A stretch of DNA of 40,344 nt from Myxococcota bacterium (GTDB lineage: Bacteria; Myxococcota_A; UBA796; CAJQPC01): NCBI GenBank assembly GCA_036012755.1, contig DASCPX010000105.1, positions 1 through 40,344 on the forward strand, read 5' to 3'. The position numbers were made by a program. Each line of letters starts with the position of its first letter. The stretch's first letter is position 1. Below are positions 34,401-40,344 of this stretch, one piece after another.

Positions 34401-37400
34401 GCGAGCAGCATCAGCGCCCCGCAGTGAGTCAGCGAATGTCGAGTTCGACCGGCATCAGCGCCAGAGGTTCGTTCGGATGGGCCGCGAGGAAGTCCACGAA
34501 CTCCATGAGAGCGCCTGCCGACTCCACGGTCTTCAGCAGACTACCGAGTCCGAGGGTCCCGACCACCACCTGAGCCGCACCGGGGATCATCTCCATCAGC
34601 CAGGAACGGGCGGGGCGCACGACGACATCGATACGGCGCCAAGGGCGACCCGGGGCGATCCCCGCCTTGGAGCGGGCGCGCCGGATTGCTTCTTCGAGCC
34701 CTCCGAGGTCATCGACGAGTCCGACCTCCTTGGCTCGGCGTCCGGTCCACACGCGGCCGCGGGCGACGGCCTCCACCTCGTCGTAGGTACGTCCCCGGCC
34801 CTCGCTGACCCGACGGACGAAGCCCTCGTAGGTCTGCTCCAGGCGCTCGCGGAACTTGGCCCGCTGGTGGTCGTCGAAGGGTCGGTCCGGCTGGTACAGC
34901 CCCACGTTGCGTCCTCGGTCGATGGCTTCTGTGAAGACCCCGAGCGCGGCGCTCCCCTTCCCGGTGACCAGCTTTCCGCCCACGACCCCGATGGACCCGG
35001 TCATCGTGCCCGACCGCGCCACGATGCTGTGGACGGGGGCCGCGATGTAGTAGCCGCCGCTGGCAGCGACGTCGCCGAAGCTGGCGATGACCGGCTTTTT
35101 CTTGGCCAGGAGCTCGACCTCGTGCCAAATGAGGTCGCTGGCGAGCACCGAGCCCCCCGGCGACTGGATGTGCAGCACGACCGCGTCCACCTTGTCGTGG
35201 TCCCGCACCGCTCGCAGCATGGGCACCACCTCCGTCGGCGAGATGCGCGGCCGCGCCGAGGGGCCGCTGGCGGTGCTCACCCCACCCTCGAGGTGCACGA
35301 CGGCGACCAGGGGATCCGGAGAGAGGAAGTCGTCCACGCGCCGGGCGGTGCGCATGAGCATCTCGACCCCGCGGTAGGGCACCCTACGCACGTCGACGCC
35401 CAGGAGCTCCTCGAGCAGTCGGTCGACGGCGTCCTCGTACCCGACGATGTCGATGAGCCCGGCTTCCTTGGCCTCCTCGGGGTGCAAAGGCGCCCGATCG
35501 ATGAGCGCCTGGACGGTGCCCTCGTCGAGCTCCCGTGACTTCGCGAGACAGCCGACGAGATCCTCGTGCAGATCGTCGATCAAGCCACTGATGGCCTCGC
35601 GGTTCTCGGCAGAGGGGTGCTCGCGGGTGAAGGTCTCGCCGAGGCTCTTGTACTCGCCGGCCGCCTCGACGTCGAAGCGGAGCCCCAGGCGCTCCAGGAG
35701 CGGCCCGATGAAACGCAGGCGTCCACCGATCCCGACGACGCCGACCTCTCCCATCGGCGGCACGATGATCCGGTCAGCCGCGGTCGCGAGGTACATGCCC
35801 GCGTTGCCGGGGGATGGCGCGAAGACCACGACGAGCTTGCCGAGGCCCCTCACCCGCAGGAGCCCGGCATGCCACTCCTGGAGCGTGGCCCAGCCCCAAC
35901 CGATGCCGGAGACCTGGAGCACGACACCCTTGACCTCGCGAGCGGAGATCGCCTGCTCGAGGTTGCGGAGCAACAACAGCGGGTGCTTGATGTTGCCGTC
36001 GAGGCGCAGATCGATGACGCCGGCGGGACCGAGACGTGCCTTCGCGCCAGCGTTGAGGCCCTGGGCGAGGAGGAAGCCCAGCGGGCGCGTGACCAGACGC
36101 AACAGATCCTTGACCAAAGAGCCTCCCAGAAGGCGGAACGAGAGCCTAATGACTACACTCTAAACACCCCGAAGTCAGCTCGGAAACGCTCAGCCAGGAA
36201 GCAGTCCTCATGAAGTTCAGGTTGAGCACCACAGAGGCGGCCCAGGTCGAGTTCGTCCCGGTCGGCGACCTCGTCGATCTCGCTGTGGAGCTCGATCACA
36301 TCCCGGACCAGGACATCGATCGACTCGAGCTCCTGGCCGAGTTGATCCCCAGGCTCTACGAGTTGGCGCAGCGAGATGGGCTGCCGTTCTCCAAGTACGA
36401 CGCAGAGGACCTCGCCGAGCTTCCGACGGAGCACCGCGCGGCCCTCGCCGAGGCGATGGGCTGGGACTCCGACGTGTCAGCGATCCTCAGAGGCGGCGGC
36501 AAGGTCTACCGGAGATACGCGAAGAACAAGAAAAACTCGCAGATCGCGCTGTTGCTCCCTTGCCTCTTGCGACCCCTGGCGAGGCACGCCGCAGAGCGGG
36601 GCGGCTAGAGGCCGCTCGCAAACGAAAAGACAAGAAGGAAGCCGGTCTATTGACCGCGCCTTCGAGCCTGAACTAAGTCATGTAGCTGTACCACCCGGGC
36701 GCAGTGCGCGCTCCAGGAGCACCACGTGGCCACCAAGACCTGTCCCAGCTGCAGCGAGGAAGTCCCCCTCGCGGCGCCGCGCTGCAAGCACTGCTTCCAC
36801 GACTTCACCGAGACCGCCCCCAACAAGGGGCGGGGCATCGTCGGACTCCTCGGCCTCATCGCCGCCATGTGTGTCCTGGGCGGTGCGGTCCTGTTCTTCG
36901 TCAACCAGCGGGCCGGCCAGGAGATGATCGTCATCGACGAGGAGACCAGCTCCATCGTCTTCACGACGAAGTTCGCCGACCACACAGAGACCGAGCGCGT
37001 GCGCTTCGACGATGTCAGCAACGTCGAGGTCGTCATGGGCGGCAGCACTGCGACCTGGGAGGTCGCGATCCTGACCGTGGACGGCTCCCGGCGAGTCGTG
37101 AACCTCTCTGACGACAAGTCGCTCAAGGGCTACGCGGAGCACATCGCGGCCGTCATGGACAAGCCGCTGGTGGAGAAGAGCGAGGCCCGTGGTTTCGGCG
37201 ACCTCGGAACCGGCGGAAAGAAGGTCGAGTAGGTGGAGCAGGCCCTAGGGCGCCTGACACGCGACCTCGCGATCGATCTCGGCACCGCCAACACGCTGGT
37301 GTGGGCGGAAGGCCGCGGCGTGGTCCTCGACGAGCCGAGCGTGGTCGCCGTCACGACAACGGACGCCGGGACCTATGGCGACGTGCTCGCGGTGGGCACA

Positions 37401-40344
37401 GAGGCTCGAGAGATGCTCGGGCGCACGCCCAGCGGCATCGTCGCCATGCGACCCATCCGCAACGGCAGCATCGACGACTTCCAGGTCACCGAGGAGATGT
37501 TGCGCGCCTTCATTCGACGGGCCGGGGGTGCCGGCATGGTCAAGCCCAGGGTGGTGGTGTGCGTTCCCCTCGGCCTGACAGAGGTCGAGAAGCGCGCCGT
37601 CCACGAGTCCACGCGCGCTGCCGGGTCGCGCGACGTCGTGCTCATTCCCGAGCCCATGGCTGCCGCCCTGGGAGCGGGCCTTCCGGTGCTGGAGGCGGTC
37701 GGGTCCCTGGTCATCGATGTCGGTGGTGGGACCACGGAGGTGGCGGTCATCTCGCTCGGCGGACCCGTCGCGGCGCGGTCGCTGCGAGTGGGGGGCGACG
37801 CGATGAATGCAGCCATCGCCGACTGGGTCGCCGAGCACGAGGGACTTCAGATCGGTGAGCGCACGGCAGAAGCCCTGAAGATCGAGATCGCTACGGCCGC
37901 GCGCCTGAAGGAGCCCCTGGTCTCGAGCGTGAAGGGGCGTGACGCGCAGACCGGCATCCCCCGACAGACCCAGGTGACGAGCGAGCATCTGCGAGCGGCG
38001 CTGCAGGAGCCACTCGCCGAGATCGTAGAGGCGATCAGGTCCGTGCTCGAGTCGACCTCTCCCGAGCTCTCGGGCGACGTGCTCGAACACGGCCTGGTGC
38101 TCGCCGGGGGCGGCGCGCTCCTGCGCGGCTTCGAACACTACCTGCGCGAGGCCACCGGGCTGCCGGTGTCGAGGGCCGAAGACCCCGCTCGCTGCACCGT
38201 GATGGGCGCTGGCCGGGCGCTCGAGGACAAGGCCATCCTGGAACGCATCAGGCTCTCCTGAGCTCGAGCCCGTCCTCCCCGACGGACAGCCAGGTGTGTT
38301 GGTGGAGGAAGTCGCCCAGGTTCACGTAGGTGCCACCCGGCAGCGCTCGAACATCGGGCGCGTGAGAGTGCCCCATCACGACCACATCCGCGGCACCCAG
38401 CTCCTCGACCGCGAGCGCGACCTGCGCCTCGATGAGTGAGGCGTTCGGCTCTCCCACATAGGAAGCCCCCGCGAGGCCGAGCCCGATGCGCTGGGCCCGG
38501 GCCGGACCGACCAGACGCATCAGGCCCGCGTAGGCCGGTCCCCGGAGGAGACGCCGCGTGAGCCTGTAGCCGAGCGTGCGATCGGCTTCGTCACCGTGGA
38601 TGAGCACGAAGCGACGTCCGCCCAGCTCCACCTCGATGCGGTCGCTGACGACGATGCCGAGCTCACGGAACAGGGGCGCAGCGCCGAAGTCGTGGTTGCC
38701 CGGCACGAAGTGCACCGCGGCCCCCCGTCCTTGCAACCGCGCCAGGGCGTCCATGACCGGGCGGTGCTCCGCGAAGGCCAGGTCTCTCCCACCCCACCAC
38801 CACTGGAACAGGTCCCCCAGCAAGAAGACCTGCGGCGCATCGAAGGAGTCGAGCAACGCGGTGAGCCGACCCTGGTTCGGATCGTCCAGCCCGTTGAGAT
38901 GGGCGTCCGAGATCATGGCCGCGAGCATCGTCAGCACGCTAACCGAATGAAGTGAGCACTCCCCTCGCCGAGCGCATGCGGCCCCAGAGCCTGGACGAGA
39001 TCGTCGGCCAGGAGCACGTCCTGGGACCAGACGCGAGCTTTCGCCGCGGCTTGTCCTCTGGCCTGCGAAGCGTGCTGTTGTACGGCCCGCCGGGCTGTGG
39101 CAAGACCACCCTCGCCCGCTTGCTCGCCCAAGGCAGGGAGCTCGTCACGCTCAGCGCAGTGCTCGCCGGGAAGAAGGAGCTCATGGAGGTCGTCCAGCGC
39201 GCCCGCACACCTGGGCTGCTGGGCCGCGACATCGTCCTCTTCGTGGACGAGATCCACCGGTGGAACCGAGCGCAACAGGACGCCCTGCTACCCCACGTCG
39301 AGGACGGAACGCTGACGCTGGTCGGGGCGACCACGGAGAACCCGGGCTTCCAGATCCGACGAACGCTGTTGTCCCGCATGGAGCTGGTCACCCTCCGGGC
39401 CCTGTCGGAAGACGACCTGGTCGTGTTGATGCAGCGCGCACTCCAGAGCGAGCGAGGACTCGACGGCTCGGTGAGCGCGACGGAGGCGGGCCTGCGCGTC
39501 ATCGCTCGTGTCGCGGGTGGAGACGGGCGCTGCGCCCTGGGCCTCCTGGAGCGAGTAGCAGACACAGGCGTGATCTCCGAGCAGACCGTGGCCGAGCGCC
39601 TGGACCGCGACGCGGCCTCTCTCTCCCTGGACTCCGATGAGCACTTCGCGCTGGCCTCTGCGCTGGTCAAGTCGATGCGAGGCAGCGACCCGGACGCGGC
39701 GCTGTACTACCTGGCGCGCATGCTCGAGGCCGGCGAGGACCCCATGTTCATCGCGCGCCGCCTGGTGATCTTCGCGAGCGAGGATGTCGGCAACGCCGAC
39801 CCGCGGGGCCTCATCCTGGCCTCGTCTGCGGCCCAGGCCGTCCACCTCATCGGCATGCCCGAGGCACGCCTGGTCCTGGCCCATGCTGCGACCTACCTGG
39901 CCACCGCACCCAAGAGCAACGCCTCCTACCTGGGACTGCAGCGCGCCCTCAAAGAGGTCAGGCGCACGGGGAAGCGGCCCGTGCCACACCACCTCCGCAA
40001 CGCCGCCACAGACCTGGATCGAGACGCCGGGATTGGAAAAGGCTACCGATATCCACATGATGCGGAATACGGCGTGGTGGACCAGCAGCACCTCCCAGAG
40101 GGCATCGAGGGCGGGTACTACGAGCCCAGGCCCTGGGGCAACGAGAGGCTCATCGCCGAGCGGCTCGCCTGGTGGCGTCAGAAGCTGGCGGAGCGCTGAC
40201 GCCAGACAGAGAGACCCCCCGGGAGCCAAGAGGCTCGACCGGGGGGTCTGAGGTGTGGACGGCGATGACCTACTCTCCCACCGCGTGACCGCGGCAGTAC
40301 CATTGGCGCTGGGAGGCTTGACTTCCGTGTTCGGTATGGGAACG

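Follow-up and report, generated by a model that had tools for sequence, protein, structure and literature searches.

Two MreB paralogues are retained under selection in a myxococcotal order without FtsA and largely without the Rod complex

Why does a bacterium keep two mreB genes when its Rod elongation genes are gone? The question is raised by mreB-B, a plus-strand gene of 342 aa at 37233..38261 of the window, the whole 40,344-nucleotide stretch of DNA analysed here from a Myxococcota bacterium of the order UBA796. The same genome carries a second mreB on contig C174, on the minus strand at 35208..36257 (349 aa); the initial annotation gave its start correctly, while its end lies 48 bases beyond the 36209 given there. 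As that annotation held, both genes are real, scoring 421.9 bits (mreB-B) and 396.7 bits (C174) against TIGR00904, which has a cut-off of 365.75. The two proteins are 49.9% identical, and the match of source-genome MreB to Caulobacter MreB (PDB 4CZE) is 313 bits. Phosphate-1, phosphate-2 and adenosine motifs are present in both, the phosphate-1 Asp being invariant in all 146 MreB rows, and both retain the catalytic Glu at the position of Caulobacter E140 (PMC4051119).

We searched 154 species-level genomes of the order for the Rod complex. MreC was above cut-off in six of them (control 7/14) and PBP2 in the same six, in all of which mreB adjoins mreC. RodA exceeded its cut-off in 1/154; in the other five PBP2 genomes a second SEDS gene adjoins pbp2, and G032 has a degenerate rodA copy. 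In the source genome, a 20-row MreC profile and a 12-row MreD profile, both built from relatives, found neither protein among 57,900 six-frame ORFs, the best MreC-profile match having an E value of 4.7, and RodA and PBP2 queries matched only FtsW, FtsI and a SEDS-bPBP fusion on C16. For MreD the absence covers the source genome plus synteny. These searches bear out what had been claimed earlier: that MreC is rare in the order and missing here, that PBP2 occurs in 6/154 genomes, that MreD and RodA are absent from this genome, that it encodes a RodA-PBP fusion and that genomes with MreC have an mreB beside it. Absence from metagenome-assembled bins had been named as a possible refutation, but the loss holds within continuous contigs. 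G048 is a single contig, and there the gene found after rodA in relatives comes immediately after mreB-A. In G032 the Rod operon is half decayed. The Rod absence is thus not a binning artefact. An intact Rod operon in G078 was rejected as native to the order because it groups with phylum outgroups, which points to transfer or contamination. These data show that MreC, MreD, PBP2 and RodA have been lost in most lineages of the order and that both MreBs have been retained under selection.

At E<1e-40, the 154 genomes have two MreB copies in 126 cases, three in 3, one in 21 and none in 4. At least two copies are therefore kept in 129/154 genomes from seven families, in agreement with the initial annotation, which however regarded the pair as equivalent orphans. 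They are instead old paralogues: MreB-A is shown to be the remnant of the mreBCD operon copy and still occupies the operon site, beside ppiD, whereas MreB-B is the older, class-wide paralogue and is linked to its own partner gene, encoding the membrane protein c0. The N-terminal helix segment contains two or fewer hydrophobic residues in 0/63 A copies versus 14/54 B copies by a crude residue count, and in the source genome the helix of mreB-B is weaker than that of copy A.

The c0 gene (36726..37232, plus strand, 168 aa) lies directly upstream of mreB-B, its stop codon abutting the mreB start. Its product has an N-terminal CxxC..CxxC zinc knuckle, one TM helix (35-60) and a PH-fold domain (64-153). 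The predicted structure (pLDDT 90.5) has 6l1r as its top fold match (Z 9.0, rmsd 2.2, 81 aligned); Foldseek returned no match to it at E<=0.001, and no named family was matched. The c0 gene is directly 5' of mreB-B in 53/54 order loci and in 66/71 independent loci. It is not beside mreB-B in G193, G284 and G285, and it is retained without mreB-B in G038. We consider c0 a candidate membrane tether that would bind MreB-B. Upstream of c0 lies c5 (36210..36608, plus strand), a conserved 132-aa gene of no assigned function and without a Pfam match, present at 30/54 mreB-B loci. Three further genes serve as landmarks of the site: divergent sppA (peptidase S49, PF01343; 34429..36117, minus strand; 45/54 loci), a convergent metallophosphoesterase that is presumably LpxH-like (PF12850; 38248..38937, minus strand; 26/54 loci) and the AAA ATPase gene rarA/mgsA (PF12002; 38952..40199, plus strand; 28/54 loci). 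A complex prediction of MreB-A, MreB-B, c0(1-64) and the FtsZ tail gave a score of 0.00 and is uninformative either way.

The two MreBs change together. In 40 genomes the catalytic Glu is kept by both copies in 18 and lost by both in 22, with no discordant genome. By family it is present in 40/40 for f5, 19/22 for f1 and 0/56 for f2, f3, f4, f6 and f7, compared with 27/27 in the outgroup; one co-loss falls within f1. A and B also vary jointly in their identity to outgroups (0.31-0.63, rho 0.92, n=19), and over the same comparison FtsZ identity is flat at 0.65-0.70. In G038 both mreB genes have been deleted, each from its separate site. In G036 mreB-A has been deleted and no MreB match is found anywhere in the genome, the lack of MreB-B there resting on this match search since the mreB-B site was not located. 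Assembly gaps were rejected as the cause for A in both genomes and for B in G038, while in G042 and G143 (70-75% complete) such a gap may explain the lack of MreB. As related genomes are not independent, the pairing amounts to about three independent events. Collectively these sequence patterns suggest that MreB-A and MreB-B act as one unit.

Both MreBs are under purifying selection without their synthases: dN/dS is 0.02-0.27 in 18/20 order pairs, the other two being saturated, and in f5 it is 0.02-0.03, below the 0.09-0.11 of outgroup pairs. The earlier proposal of a role beyond Rod-driven side-wall elongation therefore holds. This selection, the retention of at least two copies across seven families and the lockstep change of A and B, unexpected for relics, all argue against the mreB genes being slowly decaying remnants of Rod with no important new role. 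Such decay would fit the long branches, the catalytic Glu loss and the complete MreB loss in family f3, as well as the single in-frame TAA within an mreB copy of G141. It would also fit the Glu-less MreB-A of the five f3 genomes in which Rod genes persist. On balance we judge this explanation decidedly improbable.

A larger anomaly, overlooked in the initial annotation, is that the order is without FtsA and SepF yet has FtsZ. FtsZ needs help to bind membranes. FtsA was above cut-off in 0/154 order genomes and in 129/130 phylum genomes outside the order in the same search, with up to 11 candidates scored per order genome and a similar number outside. SepF was likewise found in 0/154 (control 7/14), and FtsZ is retained in 134/154. 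Nearly all order genomes are fragmented bins, and this, together with the scoring of FtsA among so few candidates, could mean that the absences are artefacts of incomplete bins or insensitive searches. Yet the comparable search recovers FtsA almost everywhere else in the phylum, and ftsQ abuts ftsZ in 27/29 order loci, as opposed to ftsA lying directly 5' of ftsZ in 10/10 outgroup loci. A local 17-row FtsA profile yields only MreB, PilM and DnaK in the source genome, and the operon deletion is visible within one-contig G048. Because synteny holds within continuous contigs, we take the artefact reading to be refuted and give it hardly any credence. An ftsA fragment in G055 lies where a contig ends, ahead of an ftsZ with a foreign-looking first ~60 residues, and is likely but not provably chimeric. 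These results show that FtsA was lost at the root of the order. A survey of 362 bacteria describes FtsA as the sole anchor in Gracilicutes and its use in Gram-negative bacteria as the rule (PMC8178401); with FtsA and SepF both at 0/154, the order is an exception to this pattern. The literature covered, which was mostly outside subscription papers and supplements, did not describe a loss of FtsA or of the Rod genes in the order.

The rest of the division machinery is in place. The source genome has a dcw cluster on C211 encoding FtsZ with its C-terminal peptide, FtsQ, FtsW and FtsI, with ftsL assigned by position, and FtsK and MinCDE were detected by motif. ZipA-like proteins were rejected as the anchor of the order, since ZipA_C matches are sporadic (3/154) and the source genome has no homologue. 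FtsEX was rejected as a universal anchor: it was above cut-off in 3/4 order genomes tested but not in closed G048, where FtsE was not found. The order thus combines FtsZ and septal synthases with a lack of FtsA and SepF and, in almost all genomes, of ZipA, which indicates that a Z-ring anchor not yet named probably exists.

Could MreB itself have assumed part of FtsA's job, with MreB-A on the membrane tethering FtsZ or steering FtsWI at the septum, in the way proposed for the MreB-like double filaments of FtsA itself? FtsA loss is specific to the order, and several root changes are consistent with such a switch. The order-root stems are long in both MreB clades (0.21 and 0.33), and copy A carries a root-specific change, the Glu of GERTAE being absent in 64/64 order A copies and present in 27/27 outgroup copies; a salt-bridge account of this loss gained no support, as the partner Lys/Arg is retained. 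The order keeps copy A, but four of five sister families have deleted it from the operon, and those of their members that were tested retain FtsA; a joint loss of MreB-A and Rod in those families was rejected, as MreC is retained in 5/5 and only mreB-A is gone. The FtsZ C-terminal tail is near-invariant (YDIPTF in 28/30), E. coli MreB is reported to bind FtsZ (PMC12372405), and the antiparallel filaments of FtsA are described as resembling those of MreB (PMC11323482). On the other hand, G036 and G038 have ftsQ-ftsZ and are without FtsA, SepF and detectable MreB, so MreB is not an obligatory FtsZ anchor or FtsA substitute. MreB divergence does not track FtsZ (rho -0.49 and -0.41), and the FtsZ tail could be retained for MinC, which the source genome has. 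It is accordingly unlikely that MreB does this work, and equally doubtful that an ancestral two-paralogue filament replaced FtsA as septal actin and was itself replaced later in the G036/G038 lineage.

A different possibility is that the pair forms a Rod-independent scaffold for cell shape or envelope, neither for gliding nor for division, whose static filaments bend the membrane or place class A PBPs. Several class A PBPs were detected by motif in the source genome, the antiparallel-interface Val (Caulobacter V118) is present in both its MreBs and in most copies sampled, and hydrolysis-poor paralogues are described as shaping Spiroplasma (PMC9195046, PMC9597168). RodZ keeps its N-terminal, MreB-binding HTH in 4/4 other order genomes examined (G048, G078, G112 and G131), but the source-genome RodZ, a 130-aa gene at C91:39149, is without it, and G036 and G038 do without the MreB pair. 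We view this alternative with about as much doubt as a septal role.

The explanation we favor, tentatively, is that the MreBs form a co-dependent, increasingly static membrane scaffold that most likely serves the Agl-Glt gliding machine. MreB-A and MreB-B would function jointly, in the simplest case as a mixed antiparallel filament; MreB-A would bind the membrane through its N-terminal amphipathic helix, and the c0 zinc knuckle would hold MreB-B. Released from moving wall synthases, the filament could dispense with ATP turnover, and a static state may have been reached in five of the seven families. Static filaments are plausible because Glu-less Spiroplasma MreBs still polymerise, and their filaments are stable (PMC9195046, PMC9597168). 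Class A PBPs and the divisome would then make the wall, and the Z ring would be held by a protein other than FtsA, SepF, ZipA or, obligatorily, MreB.

Agl-Glt is favored as the client, presumably linked without MglA, because it is the only Rod-independent client of MreB that we found described in the phylum, MreB being part of the M. xanthus gliding platform (PMC11135422, PMC11761067, PMC8144978). A GltC homologue occurs in 141/154 order genomes, but GltC is below the equivalog cut-off in 154/154, so that we can only infer gliding in the order; no cultured member or image of the order was found. The source genome encodes GltG/E/C/CglF/CglE, OM barrels, a TolQ-like AglR and a ZnR GltJ-like protein without a clear GYF domain, in two clusters and mostly below equivalog cut-offs. 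The earlier suggestion that gliding explains MreB retention thus stands in part: Glt genes are widespread, whereas a search by motif (not by profile) found no MglA in the source genome, MglB-like genes (PF03259) are absent there and present in 48/154 order genomes, and G036 and G038 retain GltC without any MreB.

These observations make the order a natural experiment on MreB without wall synthases, in which relatives with catalytic MreBs, with non-catalytic MreBs and with none can be compared. The near-invariant FtsZ tail offers a short bait for finding the Z-ring anchor, and c0 is a new candidate membrane partner of MreB. If MreB did replace FtsA, an elongation cytoskeleton would have turned into a division anchor in an FtsZ-dividing cell.

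Compared with the Rod-complex MreB of Caulobacter (4CZE) and E. coli (mreBCD-pbp2-rodA), the order's proteins share the TIGR00904 family, the invariant phosphate-1 Asp, a mostly retained interface Val and, for copy A, the operon site. They differ in that MreC, MreD, PBP2 and RodA are mostly gone, there are two coupled paralogues, the catalytic Glu is missing from both copies in five families and copy B has a dedicated zinc-knuckle/TM/PH neighbor. The Agl-Glt system of M. xanthus (MglA-AglZ-GltJ platform) belongs to the same broad lineage and also employs MreB outside wall synthesis, and the order retains agl/glt homologues. However, the Rod complex is present in M. xanthus, where MreB is connected via MglA-GTP; the order has lost Rod, its MglB is patchy, and a motif search of the source genome detected no MglA. 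Chlamydiae likewise retain MreB and lack FtsA, but they are without FtsZ and divide using MreB and PBP2, while here PBP2 has been lost and FtsZ, FtsQ, FtsL, FtsW and FtsI remain intact. FtsA-less divisomes anchored by SepF (Actinobacteria, Cyanobacteria, Archaea) resemble the order in their conserved FtsZ tail and in ftsQ beside ftsZ, and differ in having SepF. Spiroplasma MreB1-5 also comprise several paralogues without elongation synthases and with a lost catalytic motif (MreB3 having low ATPase activity). Unlike the order, Spiroplasma has no cell wall and retains active paralogues alongside the slow one; the order has full peptidoglycan genes, and the Glu was lost from both of its MreBs together.

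The source genome (6.73 Mb, 96% complete; the window is its entire contig C105) carries two mreB genes, mreB-B in the window (37233..38261, forward strand, 342 aa) and mreB-A on contig C174 (349 aa, 49.9% identical to the window copy), and both products pass the TIGR00904 cut-off. Profiles built from relatives (20 rows for MreC, 12 for MreD) found no match to MreC or MreD in six frames of this genome, and queries with RodA and PBP2 matched only FtsW, FtsI and a SEDS-bPBP fusion. The 994-aa fusion (C16:25893-28877, L317), which adjoins a PP2C-like gene, was rejected as the lost RodA/PBP2. 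Across the order UBA796, MreC and PBP2 exceed the cut-off in the same 6 of 154 genomes; two MreB copies occur in 126, three in 3, one in 21 and none in 4. The initial annotation, which described two orphan MreBs in a genome and an order largely stripped of the Rod complex (MreC, MreD, RodA, PBP2), was thus right, though understated. Its caveat that absence was judged from metagenome-assembled genomes is answered by losses visible within continuous DNA: in the one-contig genome G048 the gene that lies 3' of rodA in relatives stands directly after mreB, and the operon remnant of G032 consists of mreB with a truncated pbp2 and a degenerate rodA. RodZ (C91:39149-39541, L316) keeps its transmembrane segment and outer domain and is missing the MreB-binding HTH; a RodZ-like HTH ends a J-domain protein at C149:45784-46617. 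The mreB-A gene is flanked in 30 of 65 loci by trxA and a TPR protein that is J-domain-like by motif (L027-type loci; here C174:33385-35204).

Phylogenetic trees of MreB recovered two order-wide clades, A and B, both from 131 loci and from a second set of 117 rows that left out L145 (a wrong-frame row), nine long-branch rows and 21 near-duplicate rows of family f5. L145 remains in the 131-locus tree, the derived comparisons and the MreB profile, and is excluded from the tallies given. Clade A (SH 99) contains the C174 copy and five mreBCD-linked copies of family f3; its sister is the operon MreB of f8, a family of the same class (support 98), and its genes mostly adjoin ppiD, as in the outgroup operon. 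Clade B (SH 100) includes the window copy. Because 11 of 15 f8 genomes carry both paralogues and four other class families B alone, the duplication is older than the order. These four families retain MreC and have mreB-A deleted from the operon, the mirror image of the order, so that the B paralogue alone is left to serve the Rod complex. At sister-family loci (L204, L205, L206, L208) mreC-mreD-pbp2 persists beside ppiD and the operon mreB is deleted. Family f3 falls inside clade A as well as clade B, and its MreC sequences make up a single long-branch group that has no foreign sister. Rod therefore probably disappeared from the order on several occasions (support of 81-92 at the relevant forks). 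G078 has an intact Rod operon, but one of foreign or contaminant origin.

The two paralogues appear to have changed together. In Caulobacter MreB, E140 is reported to place the catalytic water (PMC4051119). The equivalent Glu is present in 27/27 outgroup copies, 40/40 from f5 and 19/22 from f1, and in 0/56 from the other five families. Of the 40 genomes sampled for both copies, 18 retain it in A and B alike and 22 have lost it from the two together, with differing replacements. A and B co-vary in their identity to outgroups (range 0.31-0.63; rho 0.92, n=19, kin not being independent), and FtsZ, the sole control, stays flat at 0.65-0.70. These patterns suggest that A and B act as a coupled pair, with only about three independent events behind them. 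Values of dN/dS for both copies (0.02-0.27 in 18 pairs; 2 further pairs saturated) indicate purifying selection on each, which speaks against the pair being a relic, the least probable of the readings considered here. Spiroplasma MreBs that lack the Glu are reported still to form stable filaments (PMC9195046, PMC9597168).

The division genes have also been altered. In the dcw cluster (C211:5000-21518, L313) ftsQ is followed by ftsZ after a short spacer, with neither ftsA nor murG. FtsA exceeded the cut-off in none of the 154 order genomes, the best matches being MreBs and, in G055, a single fragment at a contig end; the same search outside the order found it in 129 of 130 phylum genomes, among them 8/8 of the class. 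The ftsQ gene abuts ftsZ in 27/29 order loci, whereas ftsA precedes ftsZ in 10/10 outgroup loci. SepF was found in 0/154 order genomes and ZipA-like matches in 3/154, and FtsE is present here and absent from the closed G048. According to a survey of 362 genomes, Gracilicutes possess FtsA alone, and SepF is essential when FtsA is missing (PMC8178401); its supplementary table could name further lineages with neither anchor. The available text of two sources that mention UBA796 bins (PMC11821767; bioRxiv 10.64898/2026.07.10.737566) holds nothing on division genes or shape. We also drew on PMC12372405, PMC11323482, PMC8871954 and PMC12516126. The murG gene has moved to C246, adjoining mla-type genes; MurG matched in 5/5 genomes tested, two over the cut-off.

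FtsZ itself is retained in 134/154 genomes. Its linker is shortened, and 28 of 30 tails carry YDIPTF (25 of these aligned). MinCDE is present in this genome and may account for part of the tail conservation. The linkers (alignment A4) contain a conserved short amphipathic helix with an invariant Glu (25/25) and, ahead of the tail, a motif containing Gly; these may be additional sites for partners. Several genomes carry a second FtsZ; it stands in tandem in G078 (L291), and its tail is altered in G141 (L299).

Could the MreB pair have taken over from FtsA as a division helper? The timing speaks for this, with long stems of the MreB clades at the order root, an A-specific substitution in 64/64 A copies, and A retained in a lineage that has no FtsA. 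However, in G036 (92% complete) and G038 (94%) mreB-A is deleted between its neighbours on continuous contigs, while congeners G035 and G037 retain it, and G038 has also lost mreB-B at its site. A divergent-MreB profile detects no MreB in either genome, yet both have ftsQ-ftsZ and ftsW and lack FtsA and SepF. MreB is therefore not an obligatory Z-ring anchor, and we regard a helper role as unlikely.

Gliding is the likeliest single client of the pair, if a tentative one. Homologues of GltG, GltE, GltC, CglF, CglE, the outer-membrane barrels and AglR are present here together with a ZnR GltJ-like protein, and GltC occurs in 141/154 order genomes. In M. xanthus, MglA and AglZ are reported to connect MreB to the gliding machine (PMC8144978, PMC11135422, PMC11761067). 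A motif search of this genome found no MglA, MglB-like genes occur in 48/154 genomes, and GltC is retained in the MreB-less G036 and G038. The earlier suggestion that gliding may explain MreB retention is thus supported in part, by the gliding homologues, and weakened by the MglA result and by GltC outliving MreB. We tentatively favor a static scaffold for gliding, at somewhat less than even odds; a scaffold for cell shape is doubtful.

The window copy has a near-constant neighbour. The gene c0 (36726..37232, forward strand) abuts mreB-B and matched no named family. It lies 5' of mreB-B in 53/54 order loci and in 66 of 71 independently found loci, the exceptions being two contig ends and three spurious cases; G038 keeps c0 though mreB-B is gone. 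Its full-length relatives form about a hundred 50% clusters. The predicted structure (pLDDT 90.5) combines a zinc knuckle, a single membrane helix and a PH-fold domain (best fold match Z 9.0, rmsd 2.2, 81 aligned). The N-terminal membrane helix of MreB is weak in 14/54 B copies versus 0/63 A copies. The c0 product is a new membrane neighbour of MreB-B and, we infer, a candidate binder of it. Upstream of c0 in 30/54 loci is a conserved gene of no known family (36210-36608 in the window, 132 aa). A 5S rRNA gene (40257-40344, minus strand) is cut by the contig end, and several relatives' contigs likewise stop soon after mreB-B. In f8 (L193, L196, L197, L199, L200, L104) ftsA-ftsZ is close to the c0-mreB-B unit, in tail-to-tail orientation.

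Taken together, the order has a rebuilt cell-cycle toolkit in which FtsZ-based division proceeds without FtsA or SepF, the Rod synthases are mostly gone, and coupled MreBs are kept with a new membrane neighbour. That neighbour resembles RodZ in its layout, with one helix between a small cytoplasmic domain and an outer domain.
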